Assembly (NCBI GenBank): GCA_028534125.1
Contig: CM052816.1
Span: forward strand, 27,096,001-27,160,000
Source of the DNA: Lama glama
Lineage: Eukaryota
Reading direction: 5' to 3'
Length of the DNA: 64,000 nt
Position numbers and translations under genes: made by a program. The notes below the pieces were generated by a model, which had not been told where the DNA came from, searched no databases, and saw nothing but the letters and a program-made list of their open reading frames with translations. Positions 420-63,518 of the stretch are shown here, piece after piece (positions within the stretch are counted from its first letter, which is position 1; the number at the start of each line of letters is the position of its first letter).

Positions 420-777
420 TTCACATTGGGAGGACCAGCAGTTCAAACTGACCGGCACAGACATATCTAGGTATGAGTTTGCCTTTCCTCTAGTTCCAGT
501 ATCTGGGGACTCATTGTGTTTGATCAACTGGCATTGAATCCCACATCATATTGCATCAGAACAGGGACCCACTTTACAGCAAAAAGGTACAAGAAGTGGG
601 CCCATGATCATGGGATCCACTGGACCTATCACATTCCATACTACCTAGCAGTTGCTGGCCTGATAGAGAGTTAGAAAGACCTGGAGCAGGAGAACTGAAG
701 AATCAGGTAGGAGGCAATACTTTACAAGGACTAAGTGGCATCCCTCAGAACACAGTATATACTTTGAATCAAAGATC
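420..777 (+). mobile_element. ERVL-type internal region, decayed integrase core (5' part)
   Basis: Translates with frameshifts to WEDQQFKLTGTDISRYEFAFP ... IPHHIASEQG ... KWAHDHGIHWTYHIPYYLAVAGLIE, matching the ERVL integrase motif IASDQGTHF...HGIHWSYH...AAGLIE. Confidence 0.85.
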
Positions 778-960
778 TTTTTTTTTAATTGAAGTACAGT
801 AAGTTATAATGTGTCAATTTCTGGTGTACAGCACAATGTCCCAGTCATGTGTGTGTCTGTGTGTCTGTGTGTGTGTGTGTATATATTATATATATATATT
901 TTTTTTTTCATTAAAGGCTATTACAAGAAACTGAATATAGTTCCCTGTGCTATACAGGAT
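778..960 (-). mobile_element. L1 3'UTR terminal fragment (camelid-type)
   Basis: Poly(T) then aattgaagtacagt...atttctggtgtacagca...gaatatagttccctgtgctataca; same 3' end as the other L1 copies in the window. Confidence 0.9.
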
Positions 961-1088
961 AAAATTTCAATTAGTGACCTGTAAGCTTTAGTATAAAACA
1001 TGAAAAACTTTGGTTGAACAACAGTTGAAGAAATAGGACCTTTTTCATGCTACAGTATAAGACGAAACAGATCACAGGAATGTAACAG

Positions 1089-1165
1089 GAGGTCTAATCT
1101 CATTGCTGCTATTAAGACATTCTACAACCTTGGCCAAGTTACATTAACCTCTTCAGGTTTCTTTT
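1089..1165 (+). mobile_element. MIR core fragment
   Basis: accttggccaagttacattaacctcttcaggtttc resembles the MIR core. Confidence 0.55.
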
Positions 1166-1299
1166 CTACTTTTAATATTCTAGGTTTAACCATTTTTTCA
1201 ATTCTAAAATTATAATTATTTTGCTTTATACTCTTTAAAAATATTTAAAAATAAAAATATTTTTTATAAATTGTTCCTATTTATAGCCTATTCTATACA

Positions 1300-1482
1300 G
1301 TTTTTTTTGGTGTATATATATTTATATTTTATTGACATATAGTCAGTTTACATTGCATCAATTTCTGGAAGCTCATACGGTACAGCACAGCGAACTATAC
1401 TCAGTATCTTGCAGTAACTTATGGTGAAAAAGAATATGAAAACGAATATATGTATGTTCATGTATGACTGAAGTTTTATGCT
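1300..1482 (-). mobile_element. Short L1 3' end with inverted 5' segment (twin priming)
   Basis: 1325-1368 is the L1 terminus on the minus strand; 1369-1482 is the adjacent upstream L1 3'UTR in plus orientation. Confidence 0.85.
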
Positions 1483-1575
1483 GATCTTTTAATTGGTTCT
1501 GTTCCTCAATAGGAAGATCATGTGAGTCTGGGAACCAAGGGTGAAAACAGGAGTGGTTCCACTTAAATCACTCAG
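1483..1575 (+). mobile_element. ERVL internal region, continuation after insertion
   Basis: caataggaagatcatgtgagtctgggaaccaagggtgaaaacaggagtgg continues the integrase sequence interrupted at 777. Confidence 0.7.
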
Positions 1576-2589: not shown

Positions 2590-3910
2590 GACATGCTGAT
2601 AATATGAGCAGCACTAAGTTTGTGCATGCACAAGTAATGACCGCTATGTCATAGGTGTCACCAGACCAACAAGGATTTTAAGACCTCACTGTTTTTTATT
2701 ATTATTAATAAACTTACATTTAAGAAAAAATTTAGGTTCACAGCAAAACTGAGTGGAAAGTACAGACTTACCATATACACAGCCCCTCCATATGCATAAT
2801 CTCGCCTACTACTGACATCCTGCACCAGAGTGATACATCTGTTACAATGGATAAACCTACATCAACATGTCATCATCACCCAAAGTCTACAGTTTACATT
2901 AGGGTTTACCCTTGGTGTTGTACATTTTACGGTTTTGGATAAATGTATAATGACATATATCCACCACTGTAGTATCAGAGTAGTTTCATTGTCCTAAAAA
3001 TCTGTGCTCTACCTTTTCATGCTTCCTTATCCCCAACCCCTGGCAACCACTAATCTTTCATATTGTCTCCAATGTTTTGTCATTTCCAGATAATATAGTT
3101 TTGAAGCACACAGTACGTAGCCTTTTCAGCCTGAATTGCTTTACTTAGTAATATGCATTTAAGATTCCTCCATGTCTTTTCATGGCTTTATAGCTGATTT
3201 TTTTTTTACTGCTGAATAATATTCCATTGCTTGGATGTATCCACAGTTTATCCACCACAGTTTAGCCACAGTAACTGGTTAAACCAAGATAACCAAGGAT
3301 ATCTTGGTTGCTCCAAAGTTTTGGCAATTATGAATAAAGCTGCTATAAACATTTACGTGCAGGTTTTCATGTGGATATAAGTATTCCATTCACTTGAACA
3401 GATACCAAGGAGCTTGATTATGTTTAGTTTTGTAAGAAACCACCAAATCGTCTTCCAAAGTAGCTGTTATCACTTTACATTCCACCAGCAATGAATGAGA
3501 GTTCCTGTTGCTCCACATCCTTGACAACATTTGATGTTGTCAGTGTTCTGGATTTTGGACATTTGAATAGGTCTGTAAGTGGTATCACTATTGTTTTAAT
3601 GTTCAATTCCCTGATTACATATAATGCTGAATATATTTTCATATGCTTACTTGCCATCTGAATCTTCTTTGGTGAGATGTCTGTTAAGGTGTCGGCCCAC
3701 TTTTTAGCTGGATTACTCATCTTATTATTGAGTCTCGAGTTCTTTGTATATTTTAGATAACAGTCCTTTATCAGATGTGTCTTTTGCAAATATTTTCTCT
3801 TAAGCTATGACTTGTCTTAGTTTCTTGAAGATCTCACTGATTTTAAAATATAATTTCAAAGATGTTAAAGTATGAGAAAATACGTATTTTTAGAATCAAT
3901 GAAATACAGT
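2590..3910. mobile_element. TcMar-Tc2 (Kanga/MER104-like) DNA transposon remnant, split by an L1
   Basis: End tagaatcaatgaaatacagta resembles the Kanga/MER104 TIR plus TA; pieces at ~2590-2696 and 3828-3910. Confidence 0.55.
2697..3827 (-). mobile_element. L1MB-like 3' fragment with TSD
   Basis: tttaggttcacagcaaaactgagtggaaagtacag 3'UTR; ORF2 remnant in ORF 3475-3789; TSD aagacctcactgttttt (2680-2696) / aagatctcactgatttt (3828-3844) followed by TTTT/AA. Confidence 0.9.
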
Positions 3911-14920: not shown

Positions 14921-15025
14921 GGGGGGAGGGTATAGCTCAGTGGTAGAGCGCTTGCTTACCATACAGGAGGTCCTGGGTTCAATCCCCATTATTTCCATTA
15001 AAAAATTTTTAAAAACCCCAAAACA
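14921..15025 (+). mobile_element. Vic-1-type tRNA-derived SINE
   Basis: ggggggagggtatagctcagtggtagagcg (A box) ... gggttcaatcccc (B box), A-rich tail, flanking acttctt repeat. Confidence 0.9.
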
Positions 15026-17533: not shown

Positions 17534-19430
17534 TGCAATTTCAGTAAAAATTTCTGTTGGTATTTTGAGGGAGAGCAAACAAAGAAATTCTAAAGCTCAT
17601 CACAAAGAGAAAGCACACATGGGATAACTGGACAGCCACATGCAAATCAATGAAGTCAGCACACTCCCTCACACCATACATAAAAATAAACTCAAAATGG
17701 CTTAAAGACTTAAACATAAGACGAGACACTATAAACCTCCTAAAAGAAAACATAAGCAAAACATTCTCTGACATAAATCTTAGCAATCTAGGGCAGTCTA
17801 CCCAGGCAATAGAAATAAAAGCAAAAATAAACAAATGGGACCTAATTAAACTTATAAGCTTTTGCACAGCAAGGGAAATCATAAAAAAAATGAAAAGACA
17901 ACCTATGGAATGGGAGAACATATTTGCAAATGATGTGACAAACAAGGGATTAATTTCCAAAATATACAAACAGCTCATATAATTCAATAACAAAAAAAAC
18001 AAACAACCCAATCCTAAAATGGGCAGGAGACCTAAACAAACATTTCTTCAATAAAGATACACAAATGGCCAATAGGCACATGAAAAATGTTCAATATTGC
18101 TAATTACTAGAGAAATGCAAATCAAAACTACAATGAGGTATCAATTCACACCAGTCAGAATGGCAATCATTAAAAAGTCCACAAATAATCAAAGCTGAAG
18201 AGGATGTGGAGAAAAGGAAACCCTCCTACACTGTTGGTAGGAAAGTAGTTTGATGCAGCTATTATAGAAAACGTATGGAGATTCCTTAAAAAACTAAAAT
18301 TGACTTACTCTATGATCTAGCAATCCCACTCCTGGGCATATATCCAGAGGGAACTTTAATTCAAAAAGATACATGTACCCCAATGTTCATAGCAGCACTA
18401 GATAAAATAGCAAAGACATGGAAACAACCTAAATGTCCATTGAAAGATGACTGGATAAAGAAGTTGTGGTATATTTTATACAATGGAATACTACTCAGCC
18501 ATAAAAAAGAATAAAATAGTGCCATTTACAGCAATATGGATGGACCTGAAGATTGTCATTCTAAGTGAAGTAAGCCAGAAAGATAAAGAAAAATACCATA
18601 TGATATGACTTATATGTGGATTCTTAAAAATCAAAAAGGACAAATATGAATTTGTTTATATAACAGAGATAGACACAAACAAACTTATGATTAATCAGGG
18701 GAGGAAAGGGGTGAGGAGGGATAATTGGAAGTTTGGGATCTGTAGATACTAACTACTACATATAAAATAGATAAACAGCAAGGTCGTATTGTTTAGCACA
18801 GGGAACTATATTCAGTAGCTTGTAATGGCTCTATTATAGTGAAAAAGAAAATGAAGAGAAATATATATACATATATGTGTATGTATAACTTAATCACTAT
18901 GTTGTATACCAGAAATTAACACAATAGTTTAAATTGCCATAATTCAATAAAACAATAAATAACCATCAAAAGCAACATAGAGATCATGGGTTGGATCAGG
19001 GGCTTTTTTGAATGAGAAAGTTCACAATCTGGGGAAAAGGGTGGCAAATGTGTTATGGAAATTTTTATCACAAATCACTGATATGAAATAAACTCATCTG
19101 TAAAAGGCCTTGAAAACAAACAAATAGTAAGCACATAGAAATGGCCAAGGAATTTTTAAAAAATGCAGCAATGACAGAATTGTCTTACTGGATAATGAAA
19201 TATATTATAAAGCTATCATATTTAAATTATTTACTATCAGTACAAGATTAGACTAACCAATGGAACAAACCCAGTCTTAAGAATAAGCAAAATTTTAGGC
19301 TGTGAGAAATGTGACGTTTCAAATCAACAAAGAATAACATGCTGAAACAGTTGCTTCACTAATTGGAAAAAAGTTAAGTTAAATCTTTACCTCACATCCT
19401 ATGCCAAATTAATTGCAGAAGGATGTACGT
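17534..19430 (+). mobile_element. Old L1M ORF2 remnant (17534-17619 and 19121-19430), split by a younger L1
   Basis: aattctaaagctcat ... resumes at aatggccaaggaattttt...atattataaagcta...accaatggaac. Confidence 0.65.
17620..18960 (+). mobile_element. 5'-truncated lineage-specific L1 (ORF2 C-terminus plus 3'UTR)
   Basis: ORF 17650: HSLTPYIKINSKWLKDLNIR...KAKINKWDLIKLISFCTA; complete 3'UTR ending caataaaacaataaa. Confidence 0.95.
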
Positions 19431-19881: not shown

Positions 19882-20491
19882 ATCCCACTCCTGGGCNNNN
19901 NNNNNNNNNNNNNNNNNNNNNNNNNNNNNNNNNNNNNNNNNNNNNNNNNNNNNNNNNNNNNNNNNNNNNNNNNNNNNNNNNNNNNNNNNNNNNNNNAAGA
20001 TGTGGTATATTTATACAATGGAATACTACTCAGCCATAAAAACCGACAACATAATGCCATTTGCAGCAACATGGATGCTCCTGGAGAATGTCATTCTAAG
20101 TGAAGTAAGCCAGAAAGAGAAAGAAAAATACCATATGAGATCGCTCATATGTGGAATCTAAAAAACAAAAACAAAAACAAAAACAAACAAACAAAAACAA
20201 AGCGTAAATACAAGACAGAAATAGACTCACAGACAGAAATACAGACTTGTGGTTACCAGGGGGGTGGAGGGTGGGAAGGGATAGACTGGGATTTCAAAAT
20301 TGTAGAATAGATAAACAAGATTACAAAGTATAGCACAGGGAAATACACACAAAATGTTATGATAACTCACAGAGAAAAAAATATGACAATGAGTGTGTAT
20401 ATGTCCATGAATGACTGAAAAATTGTGCTGAACACTGGAATTTGACACAACATTGTAAAATGATTATAAATCAATAAAAAAAAGTTTAAAA
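19882..20491 (+). mobile_element. Young 5'-truncated L1 with perfect 15-bp TSD
   Basis: aaataactcaatttg at 19867-19881 and 20492-20506; L1 3'UTR with poly(A). Confidence 0.95.
19897..19996. other. Assembly gap (100 N)
   Basis: Run of 100 n inside an L1. Confidence 1.
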
Positions 20492-21390: not shown

Positions 21391-23509
21391 TATGTGTAAT
21401 TTTGAAAATACCTGTAGCATCTGTAACAATGTCTCTCTTTTCATCCTTGATATTGATTATTTGTTATTTCTTTAAATTTTTTCTTGATAGTTTTGGTAGG
21501 ATTATTTTTCCTTTTTTTTTTTGTCTTTTCAAAGAACTGACTTTTGTCTTTGAGGATTCTCTCTACCATATATTTGATTGATGAATGACTGATTGATTGA
21601 TTTCCTTTTCCTGTTATTGTGTTTAGTTTCCTCCTTTCTTCCCTTAATTTCTTGAGATTAATTCTTAGTTATTTAATTTTTATCTTTTCTTCTTTTCTGA
21701 TATTTTTAATATTCTAAATTAAAGGCTATAAATTTCTCTCTAAACAATATGTTAGCTGCATCTACACATTTTGATATGTAGTATTTTATTATTATTCACT
21801 TAAAAATATCATCTAATGGCCCTTGTGATTTTCTCTTTGACTCATTGGTAACTTAGAAGTTATTTGCCTTATTATTGAAAAGTATGGGGATTTCAGTTTC
21901 TTTGTTTTGGTTTATAGATCTCTACCTCAATTCTGCTGTATTCAGACATCATATTCTGTAAGATTTAAATACTTTGACATTTATTTAGAGCTGTTTAATG
22001 GGCTAGAATATTGTCAAAATTAGTATGTGTTCCATGTACATTTGCCAAGAATGGGGATCACATTATCAGCTTTCTGCTTTGGATGGACTGTACACCATTC
22101 CTACTGCCCTTTTGTGTTTTTTAAGATTCTACTTTGACACTTGAGCCCACGAGCCACAGACTCCACTAGGGTCCTCCTCCAGACTGATATCCTCCCTCGG
22201 CCTCCACAGCATGAGTTAAAATCACTGTGTTCCCTTTTCATTTCTAGCACACTAAATTTCTCTTTTTAGTCAACCTCAGATATTTATGAAAAAAATCTTT
22301 TTTGTTCTACTCTGTGTGGAATTTCTATGCTCTTTTGGTGGAGAAACTTCTCTGCTACCTTGCCACAAACTTTACCTCCTCCTCTCCACTAAAACGTATT
22401 CTCTTGCATACAAATATTGATTTAGGCTGAATTCTAGATTTTGGAGGTCATATTGAATGATGTTTCCCTATACATATAAATGAAATGATTGCCACCTCCC
22501 CTAAAAGGCTTGGGTGCTACACATGTTAACATCAGCATTTAAAAATGGACTACAGACACTCATCAGAAGAAAGGAACTTTCCTGTTAAAAAGAGAGTTTG
22601 GGACCTTTCAGAAGGCAGAGAAATACGAAATGAAGAACCACTACCTCCAATGGGAACTTGGATTAGAAATGGGAATTTGATTCATTTCACCTCAGTGAAT
22701 GTGAGGGGAAAATGCCAAAGGATCCTTAATGTCAACACATTTCTAAATTGACAGCTGAAAGGCTGAAATGGAACTGTGTGTCCCTTTTAAGTTAGTGAAG
22801 GTTCTTCTTTCACGTATACCAGAAAAGTATACTTCCCTAAGGGAAATGAAAATACATAACAGGGGAGGCTGAAAAGGACAGGTGCTTAAACAAATCTATA
22901 TTTCAAAGTAACAGTCTGCACATCAGCAGTGATAATAGCAATTACTCCAAAAGGGCTTAATCAGTACTGTGATAAGTGTTTTACCTGGATTCTTTTATTC
23001 ATTTTTCATAGTAGCCCTAAGGTTCTCAGGGTTTAGGATGTTAAATGGGAACATATAACTGAAATACCATTATATAATAGGTGCTGCCTTCCAGAGGAGG
23101 GTATAAAAAGGAAACGGGGTTTGAGAATTAGGGAGAGCTGAGCTATAATTCCTATTTTCACTTTCAAGAGGAAGGATGGAGATTGTCTCTCACCTTCAGT
23201 CTGGTGAGAGGGGCTTAACAAGCCCCTGGAGAGCCCAATGTGTGCCTAGGAGTTGGGAAGGCTGGAGTGAGGCAGAGACACAAGCTTGACAAATTTAAGG
23301 GCAAAATCTGTGCCTAGTGTCTGAGGTGGCAGGGAGACAGGACCTAGGCACGCTCCCACAATGGTGAGGGGCAAGAATGCTGGAGCTCTCTTGTGGACCA
23401 GATGCAGGCCAGCTGGAAAGAAGGCCAGTCTAAAGCTCCTTTACGTATTGTTTAAGAAGGCTGCCTGGAAATGCAACGGGATCCCAAAAGTCTGTAGCAA
23501 GTGTAATGT

Positions 23510-27189: not shown

Positions 27190-27290
27190 CTTTTATTTTT
27201 TTAATTTTATTTTTTAATGGAGATACTGGGAATTGAACCTAGGATCTCATGCATGCTAAGCATGCACTGTATCACTGAGCTGTTACCCTA
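27190..27290 (-). mobile_element. Vic-1-type SINE
   Basis: T-rich tail, gggaattgaacctagg (B box rc), cactgagctgttaccc (A box rc). Confidence 0.85.
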
Positions 27291-32387: not shown

Positions 32388-32542
32388 GTGGGAGGATATA
32401 GCTTAATGGTGGAGTGCATGTTTAGCATGCATGAGGTCCTGGGTTCAATTCCCAATACCACCTTTAATCAATCAATCAATCAATCAATCAATCCAATTAG
32501 CTCCTCCTCCAAAAAAACAAAAAAGAAAATAAAAAAAGAAAA
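32388..32542 (+). mobile_element. Vic-1-type SINE with (AATC)n and A-rich tail
   Basis: ggaggatatagcttaatggtggagtgcatg...gggttcaattcccaatacc. Confidence 0.9.
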
Positions 32543-32580: not shown

Positions 32581-33719
32581 AAGCAAAAGAAATAAAAGCA
32601 AAAATAAACAAATGGGACCTACTTAAACTTTTAAGTTTTTGCATAGCAAAGGGAAACCATAAACAAAACAAAACAAAAAAATATGGACTGGGAGAAAATA
32701 TTTGCAAACAATGTGATAGACAAGGGCTTAATTTCCAAAATATACAAACAGTTCATACAGCTCAATATAAAAAAAAAACTAATCAAAAAATGGGCAGAAG
32801 ACCTAAATATACATTTCTCCAAAGAAGACATACAAATGACCAACAGGCATGTAAAAAGATGCTCAACATCGCTAATTATTAGAGAAATGCAAATCAAAAC
32901 TATAATGAGGTATCACCTCACACCAATCAGAATGGCCATCATTAAAAAGTCTACAAATAATAAATGCTGGAGAGGGTGTAGAGAAAAAGGGACCTCTCCT
33001 ACACTATTGATAGGAATGTAAATTGGCGACACTACTATGGCGAACAGTATGGAGGTTCCTTGAAAAACTAAAAATAGAATTACTATATGATCCAGCAATC
33101 CCACTCTTGAGTATCTATCCAGAAAAGAAAAATCTAATTCAAAAAGACACCAGCACCCCAATGTTCACAGCAGCACTATTTACGATAGCTAAGACATAGA
33201 AGCAACCTAAGTGTTCATCGACAGATGAAAAGAATTAAGATGTGGTGTATACATATACAATGGAATATTACTCAGTCACAGAAAAGAATGAAATAATGCC
33301 ATTTGCAGCAACATGGATGTACCTAGATATTATCATACTAACTGAAGTCAGTCAGACAGAGAAAGACAGACATCATATGGTATCATTTATATGTTCAATC
33401 TAAAAAAAAATGATACAAATGAACTTATTTACAAACCAGAAGACTCACAGACATAGAAAACAAACTTATGATTACCAAAGGGGAAAGGCAGGGAGGGATT
33501 AATTAGAGTTTGGGATTAATAGATGCATACTACTATATATAAAATAGATAAGCAACAATGACCTACTGTATAGCATGGGGAACTATATTCAATATATTGT
33601 AATAACCTATAACAGGAAAGAATCTGAAAAAGAATATATATTTAATGTATAACTGAATCACTTTGCTCTACATCTGAAACTAACATAGCATTGTAAATCA
33701 ATTGTACTTCAATTAAAAA
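32581..33719 (+). mobile_element. 5'-truncated lineage-specific L1 with TSD
   Basis: ORF2 remnant WEKIFAN...[26 protein letters not shown] aagatggtactggtgg (32565-32580) / aagatggtgttggtgg (33720-33735). Confidence 0.95.
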
Positions 33720-34169
33720 AAGATGGTGTTGGTGGAAATTTAAAGAAATCTGAATAACTCTACAAGTGGAGTAAGTGTTTGGCCAAAGAGTCTGAGTCAT
33801 CAGATTTAAGGGATTTCCCAAGATGGTTAAAAATCCAGAAATTCCCCATCCCTTTGAAAACTTATCAGGAGATTTCATAAGAACTTGAGGACTGAAGTTT
33901 TCAGTTGTAATGCTAATCTTCATGACTGTTTAGTTGGTGTATTTGCCATCTCTCTTGTCATTTCTCATAATGCTTGTACATCAAAGACACTTAATAGAGA
34001 TTTATTTAAATAATAAATCAATGTAGTCAACTGACCCACCCTTATTCTGCCACTACTATGATCTATGATAGAAAGTTAAAGTGAAAGACAGTGAGAAAAT
34101 GTCTGCCAATATTTCACATACAGTCCATTCTGGGGTTTCACAAATCATGCTTACATGAATCCAATAGTA

Positions 34170-52260: not shown

Positions 52261-52385
52261 CGGAGGGGAGGGTATAGCTCAAGTGGTAGAGCGCATGCTT
52301 GACATGCATGAGGCCCCAGGTTCAATGCTCAGCACCTCCTCCAAATAGAAATAAATGAATAAACCCAATTTTTTTTTTCAAAAAA
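52261..52385 (+). mobile_element. Vic-1-type SINE with TSD
   Basis: ggggagggtatagctcaagtggtagagcgcatgc...ggttcaatgc; TSD aagagtgagg / aagagtgaag. Confidence 0.9.
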
Positions 52386-55320: not shown

Positions 55321-55396
55321 TATGTTTACCAGATTCACTTAACTCCTTATAAAGGTTTAATGGAGATCTTGTATTTATTCAGGAATATTTTGTCCA

Positions 55397-56101
55397 CAAT
55401 TATCGAAAACAGTATGGAGATTACTTGTAAAACTAAAAATAGACTTGCCCTGTGATCCAGCATTCCCACTCCTGGGCATATATATGAAGGAAGCTCTAAT
55501 TCAAAAAGACATATGCACTCCAGTGTTCACAGAAACACTATTTACAACTGCCAAGACATGGAAACAACATAAATGTCCACCAACAGAAGACTGGATAAAG
55601 AAATTGTAATCAATCGCTCTAGCTATACAATGGAATACTACTCAGCCATAAAAAAGAATAAAATAATGCCATTTGCAGCAACATGGATGGATCTGGAGAT
55701 TGTCATTCTAAGTAAAGTAAGCCAGAAAGAGAAAGAAAAATACCATATGATATCACTTGTATGTGTAATCTAAAAAAATTACACAAATGAACTTATTTAC
55801 AAAACAGAAACAGACTCACAGATATAGAAAATAAACTTATGGTTACCAGAGGGGAAAGGGGTTGGGAAGGGATAAATTTGGAGTTTGAGATTTGCAAATA
55901 CTAACTACTGTATATAAAATAGCTAAACAACAAGTTTCTTCTGTATAGTGCAGGGAACTATATTCAATTATCTTGTAATAACCTATAATGAAAAAGAACA
56001 TGAAAAGGAATATATGTTGTATGTACCTGTATGACTGAAACATTACACTTTACACCAGAAACTGAGACACTGTAAACTGACTATACTTCAATAATAAAAA
56101 A
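55397..56101 (+). mobile_element. Lineage-specific L1 3' fragment with TSD
   Basis: ORF2 end [31 protein letters not shown] aggaatattttgtcca (55381-55396) / aagaatactttgtcca (56102-56117). Confidence 0.95.
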
Positions 56102-57326
56102 AAGAATACTTTGTCCAGCTTGAAAACAAAACCACTGGTCCATCTGTGCAGGGGAACTTTTCAAGATTCTGGTTCTTACCATTTTAGTGCTACCATGCAC
56201 AGTCTCATGGTGAATGATTTATTCCGTATAACTATGCTCATTTGAAAAGCTCAGATTTCACACTCAGCTTTATATTCCCTGTTTCAAGTGTTTAGTTGTT
56301 TCAGAATAACTGTTGCTGAACCTGTTTAGGTTCGTAGTAATCCAAACCTAGAAGGGAAGACATTTCGGTAACCACAGTACATATTATCTTTCATAGATAT
56401 GGCTCCTCAACCCAAACCAGAGTATGTGTAAAGCTCTGTTTTTTTGTCAATTGCTTAATTACCATGTTTCATTTGTCTTTGATTTGGTGAATTTTGAGGG
56501 ATGAGAGAAGGGAGGATATGAGGAGCTATAAAACCCAAAACAGGATCTTTTTTCAACTTGAAAGGGCATGGAAACTTCTTGCTATAACTTCATGGTAACA
56601 TTAGACCTTTTTGCTTAGAACATGGGCTAGGGTAATAATGTACTACCAACAACTACATCTGCCAAGCCCTTTATAGCTTTTCTGATTTTATTTAATCTTC
56701 ACAATCTGGGGAGATAGCAGGAAGGGAGCTTTGACTCTGGGATTCCACTTGAAGGAACTGAGATGCAGAGAAAATAAGTGATAAACCTGAGGCAGTGTGA
56801 CGATAACACAGATGGCCTATGTCCACTGTGTTCTTTTTTGTGTTATATGATACAGTGCTTCTCAGCCTCCAAGTGTACCATTCACATGTATGTCCTACGT
56901 TATCATTTTCTCTAAGATGGGGGGATCTGTATGAGCTGATTTCAAAGGTTCCTTCAGTTGATGTGTTTTATGACTGCATTCTGCTATCTGCTTTCCTATA
57001 AAAAAAGACTCTAGGTTTCCATACTGCTGAAGGCCTAGGGTTTTCTTTTCTGCTAATTCTGTCTTCACAATGTTGAAAAGGGTTCAAGTTTTATTTACTG
57101 AAGAGTCCCTTCTTCATTTCTCTTCACTCAACATTGATTTCATGCCCTTAAATACATTATGCTTGAAGCTGTGATTTTCCCCTGGAATCAAGCCAGGAAC
57201 GAAGTTAATCTCAGTCCATTACGCTTCTAATGCTTAGCTTCACCTCAGGATGTTTTCCAAAGTACTTAGAAGTCATTATTCCTTATAGGACCTAGCAGTT
57301 TACCAAGTTTCTACTTTGTTTAAAAT

Positions 57327-60468: not shown

Positions 60469-62226
60469 TTTTCCTAGGACTAGGGTCTTTGTTTTTTATC
60501 AGATTCTCACAGGGTTTGTAACTTTCAAAAGGGTAAGATTTATTGTTTTAATGGCTAATTTGGTAATTTGTATATAGCCACATGGTTAACAGGGTAAGAT
60601 TAGGACAAATATAATTAAAATTCAGAAGCTTAGCTTACTAGTAATAGAGGAAGATGTTTATTGTGTAAAAAAAGAAAACACAGCACAGACTTAGAAAATA
60701 TAAGTTAACAAGAAGTCCTTAGTAACAATCTTACTAAACCAAAACAAGAAATTAATAAGTGAGAATTAGTTGCAGAATTTCCAAGATTCAGAGTAAAGAA
60801 CTGTACGGATAAGTGACTACATATTGGTCAGATAACACAGTATCTCATAGTTTGGAGAGTTTCAGTTCATGACAATATTTAGCATTAGTCTTGTTTAGAT
60901 TGGGATTTGCACGCACCCTTATTGACATCTGGGTAGATATTAGGAAAATAAGGACCTCAGAATGCTGTCAAATTATTATCTATTCTATTCTCAGCTGAAA
61001 TTATTTGAAACTCAAAAATCTAAAAGTATTTATTGGTCTCTAATTTCTATACCCCATACAAGGACTAACATTTTCAGAACCATTTCCATAAGTGAAGAGT
61101 ACTGTGCTTTTCCTGTTCTGCATGTGTAGCATCTGACCTTGCTGATGAAATAAGCAACAGGAATTTGGTGTCATAGGAATGAGGCCTAGAATACGGATTA
61201 CCTATGTGTTTGATCTGTAGACTCACATCCGCCACTTGTGTTAATTTTAGACATAAGTAGGATTAATTAGATAGGAACTAAATGTGACTGGGCAATAAGT
61301 ACTGGTGATCTGCTCATATGACGAGATAGGGATAGAGTTGAAATTAGAATTCCGAATCTTGGCCCTTGTACTGGTTGTTCTTCCTCCTGGTGGCCGTGTT
61401 CCTGCTCATAGATACAAGGGGTTCCAGAGAGACTGTGCTACAGTTCACAGCAAAGAAAGGCAGCATGAAGTGGTCCTCTGATGGCTGATGGTCTGGGGCA
61501 AAACCCACAGCAATTTGTGAGGAACTCTGATACTGTATTAATTTGTCAGCAAATCACTTTTCTTAACTGAGACTTCTCTTTCTAGCTCCTAGAAATCTGA
61601 CTTGCTACATTCTTAGGGAGGGAAATGTGGACCTTCCAGGAGAATTTTTTTTTAAGGGCTGAGAAGTGCCACAGAAAATGTGATTTAAAGCAAAGAAGAA
61701 GGGGGAGAAATAGCACTTGTATGATTTTTATGTGTATGTTAAGCCTGTGTGTGAACTGTTTGGCTATAAAAATAAGCATGAGTACAATATATGAATGTAT
61801 AACCTTCTAAGTGATTATTTTTTTATTAAAGTTGAAGTCAACTTTTCATTCCAATTTTTTGAAGACTTTTTCATTTTATAGTTTGGATTCCAGCATTTCT
61901 GAAGCATTTATTTGTTCATTAGTTATCATAAAGGGAAGGTCAAAAATGATATTTAGCCAAACATCTGCTTTATTCAATATCTATATCTTTATTCAATATA
62001 AAAATATCTAGCATATTTTTAATAAGTATATGCAAGAGCTACAGATATACAGAGCAATAAACAAACTGAATGTTTCATCTCCAAAATTTTAAGCATACAC
62101 CCGTTTTCTTTGCTTTGGGCTGGGGTCACTCCTGACTTCAGTGAGAGTTATCCCGTTTTTCCTCTCTCAGGGCCATACAATAAGTAGGCTGTCAATACAA
62201 TTTATGCATAAATAAAGAAACAGGTG

Positions 62227-62480
62227 CTCCCCACCCTCTTTCCCCCCTGGTAACCATAAGTTTGTTTTCTATGTCTGTGAGTCTGTCTCTGTTTTGTAAA
62301 TAGGTTTATTTGTGTCTTTAAACATTTTTTTAAATAAATGGGGTGGTGAGGGGTAAATTGGGAGTTTGGAGTTTATAGATACAGCTGCTATATATAAAAT
62401 AGATGAACAACAAGGTCCTACAGTATAGCACAGGAAACTATACTCAATAACTTGTAATGGCCTATAATGAATATTCTTTT

Positions 62481-62525
<45 letters not shown>

Positions 62526-62632
62526 TTTTGGTGTAAAGCATAGTGATTCATATATATATATATATATGAATCACTATGCTTTACACCAAAAATTGATACA
62601 ACAGTGTAAACAGTCTATACTTCAATAAAAAA
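62227..62632 (+). mobile_element. L1 3' fragment with 5' inversion and rearranged 3'UTR
   Basis: 62227-62339 antisense L1 3'UTR; 62340-62632 sense L1 to poly(A); possible TSD aaacaggtg / aaaaaggtg. Confidence 0.9.
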
Positions 62633-63518
62633 ATTTTTTTAAAAAGGTGTTGACTATTGTTAAGGAAAAAGAGTATTTTTTTCAAAAAAAATTTGCTTGA
62701 ATCAATGTGTCACAAAATTTCGTGTGTGTGTTTTTTTAAGGATCTGTAAAAAAAATGACACAATGAGTTTGTGTTGCTTATATACTGGTAGATTCACAGA
62801 ATAAAACTAGTGAAGATGTAGTGAAATAATCATCATGGTGCTGGAGAGTCTATTGAAGCTTAGATCACCTAACTCAGTTTCCTACTAGAAACACATAAAA
62901 ACAAACACAATTTCCTATAAAAACATAAAGTACATTAATATAATTTCATGCCTCAAAGGATAACATAAGGTCTGAGTTTAAGGTTACTTTTCATAGTAGA
63001 CAAAATTAACTTTCTGTTAAAAAAATAGCAGAAAATACAGGAAAGCTTGTTATCCTTCTCAGCAAATAGACTAAAGACTGAATTTGTGGTCCCTTTGGTG
63101 ACAAAATATAGACTATGTTTAGATCTAACTTAAACAGGACCTTCTTTCCACGTGGCTAATGAACTTTAATCTTAACACTCTTACGGTAGTTCATTTAAAG
63201 AGTTACCAACCTTTGGTTTCACATTTACAAAATAGGTTAACGACTAGACCAGTGTTTCGCACTGATAAATTATGTAAGTTTCCCCAAATTGTTCACTAAA
63301 TACTGCTGTGGCTTGGAGAATATGGTTTTACACACAATTTTAACCCAAATGGAATAAAAATGGTTGGGGCTTACAATTTTTGTTTTTTCACACTATCTAT
63401 CGTATAGTAACACCTGGGAATAAATTCTCAGGTGATACTGGCATTTATAGTACAAAATCTGCCATAAAACTACCGACCTATTATTGCAAGTTCAGAAGCA
63501 ACTCAGCAGCTATAGAGT

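Follow-up and report, generated by a model that had tools for sequence, protein, structure and literature searches.

Two by-products of L1 retrotransposition are closest to the locus described here: partnered L1 3' transduction, reportedly described by Moran in 1999 and by Goodier in 2000, and the twin-primed, 5'-inverted L1 insertion, which Ostertag and Kazazian are said to have set out in 2001. In human data both mechanisms and their combination are already well described and common, as far as the abstracts and extracts of the literature go. PMC12350158 takes unique DNA enclosed by two A-rich tracts as its working definition of a partnered transduction, and PMC13009371, a human cancer series, reports 5' inversion in 30% of partnered transductions and a poly(A) signal near 79% of 349 end points, with canonical signals often bypassed; PMC8605555 serves as general background only. 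The insert analysed here appears to be one old, neutral case of these two textbook by-products, which are often seen together.

The insert measures 701 bp and lies near the start of the window, the 64-kb stretch of DNA that was analysed as a whole, in AT-rich mammalian DNA (30–44% GC) with many L1 3' ends. It is bracketed by an 8-bp duplication (774–781 and 1483–1490) and very likely represents a single L1-mediated event, twin-primed from one RNA, with its 5' part flipped, inside a dead retroviral remnant. Read on the minus strand, it opens with a 5'-truncated piece of L1 3' UTR that stands inverted relative to the remainder (1482–1369, 114 nt, plus-strand orientation), which is tailless and abuts the right duplication. 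The non-inverted terminus of the same element, L1a, follows at 1368 to about 1328 with an AATAAA at 1333, and then its degenerate A-rich tail (1327–1300), as delimited from the sequence and by alignment to window copies. A non-L1 spacer of 333 nt (1299–967, 27% GC), the candidate transduced flank, leads to a second L1 3' end, L1b (about 966–787), which is 5'-truncated some 180 nt from the L1 end, and the insert closes with a run of nine A (786–778). This order is the one given in the preliminary description, with some limits moved: the homology of the second L1 end reaches about 966 and not 960, and the non-L1 DNA between the L1 ends accordingly runs from about 967 to 1299 and not from 961 to 1300. 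The poly(A) of that account is present as a 9-T run on the plus strand, but 4 of its nucleotides belong to the left duplication and 5 lie beyond it. The ATTAAA of L1b directly adjoins this tail, a TG/TA microsatellite has grown within L1b (848 to about 900), and the spacer holds one ATTAAA that was passed over, at 1176. Rfam and ARAGORN returned no match within the insert; its product is regarded as inert, and no function is suggested.

The ends of the insert carry the marks of an L1-endonuclease-type insertion. The 8-mer gatctttt is found at both junctions, as had been proposed, and AA follows the right copy at 1491–1492, giving a TTTT/AA site at 1487–1492 that corresponds to the endonuclease motif as given in PMC2912911. 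The 8-mer occurs nine times on the two strands of the window; the chance that a random position matches a left-junction 8-mer is 56/62,388 (0.09%), or 157/62,388 (0.25%) with near-poly(T) 8-mers included, computed for a boundary fixed by L1 homology. The last four T of the left copy are shared with the 9-nt tail, which may be the old tail of L1b. A second, 9-bp repeat, TTTTAATTG, overlaps both junctions (783–791 and 1487–1495) and is probably due to chance; TTG follows TTTTAA at 4 of 164 window sites (2.4%). In its place, a duplication of 13 bp with internal priming was weighed and rejected: the T run on the left would have to grow from four to nine, a gain of five, and the TTTT/AA site would be lost, which makes this reading less likely than the 2.4% coincidence.

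The same repeat has a bearing on a stepwise origin, in which a twin-primed L1a transduction came first and L1b inserted into its tail later, or the reverse, since it permits alternative readings of the 3' junction. L1 targets A-rich tails, which also speaks for such a history. A later insertion would have to hit the old junction exactly, however, and neither L1b nor the block 961–1482 has a duplication of its own, nor is there an A-tract upstream of L1b. Scans of four junction pairs for duplications of sub-parts gave no repeat of at least 6 nt in two and only 6-mers or T-runs in the other two, and a search of the insert for an internal poly(A) or duplication pointing to stepwise insertion found none. 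Build-up in steps is therefore considered improbable, and insertion in a single event is preferred.

The target is a decayed retroviral integrase on the plus strand, closest to foamy (class III-type) structures; ERVL is a putative name for it. Its left part (406–773, the left limit being approximate) matches Pfam rve at E=0.0022, under the curated cut-off, foamy-virus integrase structures at E=0.001–0.005 and, in an exhaustive search, 89 library proteins at E<=0.001. A word-index search for homologues of the integrase piece gave no match where the exhaustive search succeeded, and the top structure-library match of this flank, a designed repeat protein, was dismissed as an artefact of summed repeats. 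Stops and frameshifts break the remnant on both sides of the insert, and its right part (1491–1578) ends near 1578; a Pfam match of that part to RBD_RDR6 (E=0.019) is taken as chance. Further to the right lie older minus-strand L1 fragments at 1843–1981 and 3419–3799, 67–70% identical to the long copies of the window.

The preliminary description had the integrase stopping at the left junction and resuming on the right, and had named non-colinearity of the two retroviral pieces as a ground for rejecting its reading; protein-offset and DNA tests both find them colinear. Blind tblastn of the right flank is weak, with 23 of the 89 proteins matching both sides, nearly all of it noise at E>1, and P0075 alone in the right register; for this reason an anchored test was used. 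Eight of the 89 proteins align ungapped to 692–772. Residues +8 to +20, from the seven proteins with enough sequence past the anchor, score at an offset of 709, rank 12 of 127,924 six-frame positions, and residues +21 to +31 (five proteins) score at an offset of 708, rank 48 of 127,936; an offset of 709 equals the insert plus one duplication. The block +1 to +20 ranks below 500, because its first codons, past the duplication, are in another frame than those that follow. At the DNA level the flanks were aligned separately to L001, a metagenome locus: position 777, the end of the left flank, falls on base 902 and position 1490, the start of the right flank, on base 905, with a score of 71 against a best of 54.5 among 399 random window pieces. 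The two flanks therefore belong to one split, colinear remnant that leaves space for a single copy of the 8-mer.

L001 belongs to the six loci of 53 recovered by an alignment query in the metagenome scan. The sixth, L006, has no DNA match, and L001–L005 are near-identical (three distinct sequences) and count as one independent comparator, to which the left part is 68% identical in DNA over 523–771, with a weak match at 406–489. The uninterrupted target is seen in a paralogous relative (L001) only. A scan of the metagenomes with one protein gave 191 pattern matches and 0 confirmed. As an observation in its own right, metagenome assemblies contain retroviral integrase DNA of mammalian type in the near-identical L001–L005, presumably derived from the host.

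Evidence that the insert exists as assembled comes from the shares of its words in sequencing runs. Among 22 listed runs, 19 (7 studies, 4 organism labels) hold 0.81–0.92 of 108 words sampled from 600–1700; the list ranks the best holders, so that empty alleles are hidden, and the top run may be the source of the window itself. Shares of this size need most of the insert, which makes up 701 of the 1101 bases, and the insert is therefore inferred from them to be real DNA common to the four labels and not an assembly error.

The three L1 pieces (1369–1482 on the plus strand, 1368 to about 1328 and about 966 to 787 on the minus strand) match other L1 3' ends in the window. Two window copies sharing those ends run upstream into L1 ORF2 (E=4.5e-56 and 2.1e-40 against human ORF2p), and so the 3' ends within the insert belong to L1; the L1 ends of the window have a look that is taken to be camelid. 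Over some 40 final columns, the L1a terminus shares 89% identity with the window copy at 55925 and 87% with that at 23505. The inverted piece and this terminus are consecutive parts of one L1 3' UTR minus 4 nt; the chance that an unrelated fragment would lie as close as 10 nt is 0.2–3.7%, depending on the assumed span. The loss of about 4 nt (taca) claimed for the inversion junction is seen as a 4-letter gap in nine of nine comparators, seven of which read TACA. With one duplication, a TTTT/AA site and the geometry of twin priming, the earlier reading as an L1-endonuclease-type insertion with a 5' inversion is upheld. The non-inverted arm is 587 nt and the inverted arm 114 nt. At the 5' junction the G at 1483, present in four of nine window comparators, is a possible 1-nt microhomology; comparison with the window copies gives no microhomology at the inversion junction, which when folded as DNA is no better than its shuffles (z 0.8). 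L1a and L1b are identical at 68 of 99 positions, and each is 64–77% identical to other window copies. Subfamily ordering is uninformative, as the window copies cannot show L1a to be younger than L1b.

The favoured reading, held at a probability of roughly 0.6, is that an active donor L1a read through its flank to the downstream L1b in a partnered 3' transduction and that the RNA was then inserted by twin-primed, target-primed reverse transcription. Elsewhere in the genome, L1a would have been transcribed past its own AATAAA and tail and across about 333 nt of flank, the transcript ending at an older, short L1b fragment in the same orientation whose ATTAAA and A-run would have terminated the RNA. 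The TTTT/AA site, seen inside the dead integrase sequence, would have been nicked there, presumably by L1 endonuclease. A first cDNA of about 587 nt may have been copied from the tail and stopped some 41 nt inside L1a, as the anatomy of the insert has it. The second target end, 8 nt away, would have primed on the same RNA 4–5 nt further upstream and copied 114 nt; the geometry is visible at the locus and the priming is deduced from it. Joining the two cDNA ends head to head would yield the 5' inversion, the 4-nt loss and the 8-bp duplication that are present.

In comparing the insert to described partnered transductions (PMC13009371, PMC12350158), an L1 3' end, a first A-rich tail, unique non-L1 DNA and a second tail are all present inside one duplication at a TTTT/AA site; the spacer length lies within the ranges given in these reports, and a variant poly(A) signal stands at the end point. 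Unlike them, the insert ends at the terminus of a second L1 fragment and not in anonymous DNA, it is old with decayed tails, and the candidate transduction is known from the insertion site alone. A final tail of only 5–9 nt also counts against the favoured reading. Searches of the literature, made mostly at the level of abstracts, found no transduction ending at a downstream L1 fragment and no 11-bp inverted repeat of the L1 3' UTR, which is weak evidence.

Similar likenesses and differences are seen with twin-primed insertions (PMC2912911, PMC12016303, 10.1101/2024.08.27.596794). The inverted arm ends at the duplication and a small deletion lies at the inversion point; small internal deletions, with a median of 14.5 bp, are noted in 66% of 1,703 5'-inverted L1s in 10.1101/2024.08.27.596794. 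The 587-nt non-inverted arm fits the human germline median of 571 bp from PMC12016303; a reading with L1a alone would need an arm of about 69 nt. The germline inverted arm has a median of 751 bp in the same source, and the 114 nt found here, far below it, count against the reading. PMC2912911 is likewise unfavourable on two points: duplications of <=9 bp occur significantly less often in L1s with a 5' inversion than in 5'-truncated ones, where this one is 8 bp, and about 70% of inverted copies have 2–5 nt of 5' microhomology, where 1 nt, at the short end, is found here. By the same source, absent microhomology is commoner at the inversion junction than at the 5' junction. The break also lies only about 41 nt inside the L1 end, a difference from described cases that the transduced extension explains. 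A 590-bp requirement for inversions does not apply to the L1 3' end: PMC5668948 gives that figure for the 5' end, and the objection built on it was dropped.

The twin-primed event could have begun from an RNA that L1a did not drive: a transcript of the host (intronic, non-coding or read-through) or of an L1 lying further upstream would have crossed a dead L1a, ended at L1b and been mobilised in trans. Such a 5'-inverted retrocopy would leave an identical structure with the same hallmarks, and at the insert locus alone the two are indistinguishable; 5' inversions are reported in 3 of 23 processed pseudogenes (PMC12016303). Nothing at the locus points to a long or active L1a, and the 5' ends of L1a and of L1b fall at one L1 position, both aligning from 55932, as a pair of short dead fragments would do as well. 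Unlike a typical retrocopy, however, the insert has neither exon joins nor a gene match, and its 5' part is L1: the inverted arm consists of L1 down to its final base and carries no foreign flank, which is what a longer source L1a would give. Partnered transductions are also frequent, 466 of 5,311 polymorphic L1 insertions in PMC12350158 carrying a transduction. Mobilisation in trans is accordingly regarded as unlikely, and a transcript driven by L1a is preferred.

The spacer has no second copy within the 64-kb window. That L1a, spacer and L1b together form a small multi-copy, non-autonomous unit is thought highly improbable. Part of the spacer, near 1125–1160, has a MIR-like look, which stays a putative resemblance because its best local score in the window, 56.5, lies within the shuffled range of 50–58. 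PMC12350158 describes 5' transductions with a splice acceptor; no pyrimidine tract for an acceptor was seen by eye at the junction of spacer and L1b. That junction (966/967) also has no A-tract, which weighs against a template-switch chimera, in which reverse transcription would start on an L1b-type mRNA and jump after about 180 nt to RNA or DNA of L1a and its flank, with twin priming to follow and a source locus that has no L1b past the spacer. Such a jump would produce an identical structure at this locus; it would account for a tail that comes from L1b and for the end of L1b at a point where 5'-truncated copies can stop, and 22 templated insertions are documented in 10.1101/2024.08.27.596794, but these stand among 3,598 insertions there and are rare in comparison with transductions; a switch is judged to have little probability. 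If the source predicted by read-through from L1a were found, the spacer would tag an extinct active L1, and the insert would serve as a clean presence/absence marker for the lineage.

The positions of the breakpoints raise a further matter. It is doubtful, though conceivable, that an 11-bp inverted repeat in the L1 3' UTR of this lineage, with arms about 115 nt apart, sets both the point at which reverse transcriptase stops and the point of second priming. The twin-priming breakpoints 1483 and 1368 lie within the 3' arm or at its edge; breakpoint 1369 and the 5' end of L1b (about 966) both precede the 5' arm by some 8–10 nt. On the L1 map the inverted piece and L1b have their 5' ends at one position, a coincidence noticed post hoc; under simple length models two given ends agree to within 5 nt with a chance of 0.6–1.7%; 3 of 11 ends fall within 12 nt, with a chance of 3–18%. 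Across eight window copies 85% of 88 cells of the 11-pair helix are paired, against 12–56% with slid partners, the helix having been drawn from the same eight sequences used to score it. Its covariation is no better than that of shuffles (115/500), and RNAalifold did not pick the stem, choosing a different local helix. Whole-fragment folding gives z between -2.6 and +1.0 in eight of nine copies, the ninth being driven by a perfect palindrome. If general, the repeat would represent a sequence-encoded hotspot of truncation and inversion about 180 nt from the L1 end; a genome-wide hotspot would matter more because the determinants of L1 truncation and inversion points are called poorly understood in PMC13009371 and PMC12016303.

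The same repeat suggests a DNA-level origin, by later inversion through recombination between the 11-bp arms or by capture of the block at a break, as the repeat spans the flipped segment almost exactly. The flip reaches the duplication itself, however, and takes in bases beyond arm 1, the inner junction does not represent an in-register crossover, and the endonuclease-type site with its duplication favours target-primed insertion, so that this origin is very improbable and twin priming is retained.

Several other features of the window were observed. The longest L1 remnants (17650–18962 and 32583–33721) cover the C-terminal region of ORF2, with stops; Pfam found nothing in any of six frames of the long L1 copies (0/6), where a PDB search matched ORF2. 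A 5'-truncated L1 at 55383–56117 has a 14-bp duplication (13/14), and the copy itself (55397–56103) contains an 18-bp inverted repeat at 55933–55950 and 56046–56063. An L1 3' piece at 62218–62649 has an inverted 5' part (62227–62315) that on the L1 map overlaps the forward part by about 15 nt, and it contains a perfect palindrome of 34+34 nt at 62525–62592; candidate duplications are 62320–62334/62629–62643 (14/15) or 62218–62226/62641–62649 (8/9, by eye). This piece may represent another twin-primed insertion, with a fold-back, or else result from misassembly. A 100-N assembly gap at 19897–19996 adjoins another L1 piece (19997–20484). Four tRNA-like heads, 80–85% alike, at 14926–14997, 27218–27289, 32392–32463 and 52268–52340, are probably tRNA-derived SINEs rather than tRNA genes.
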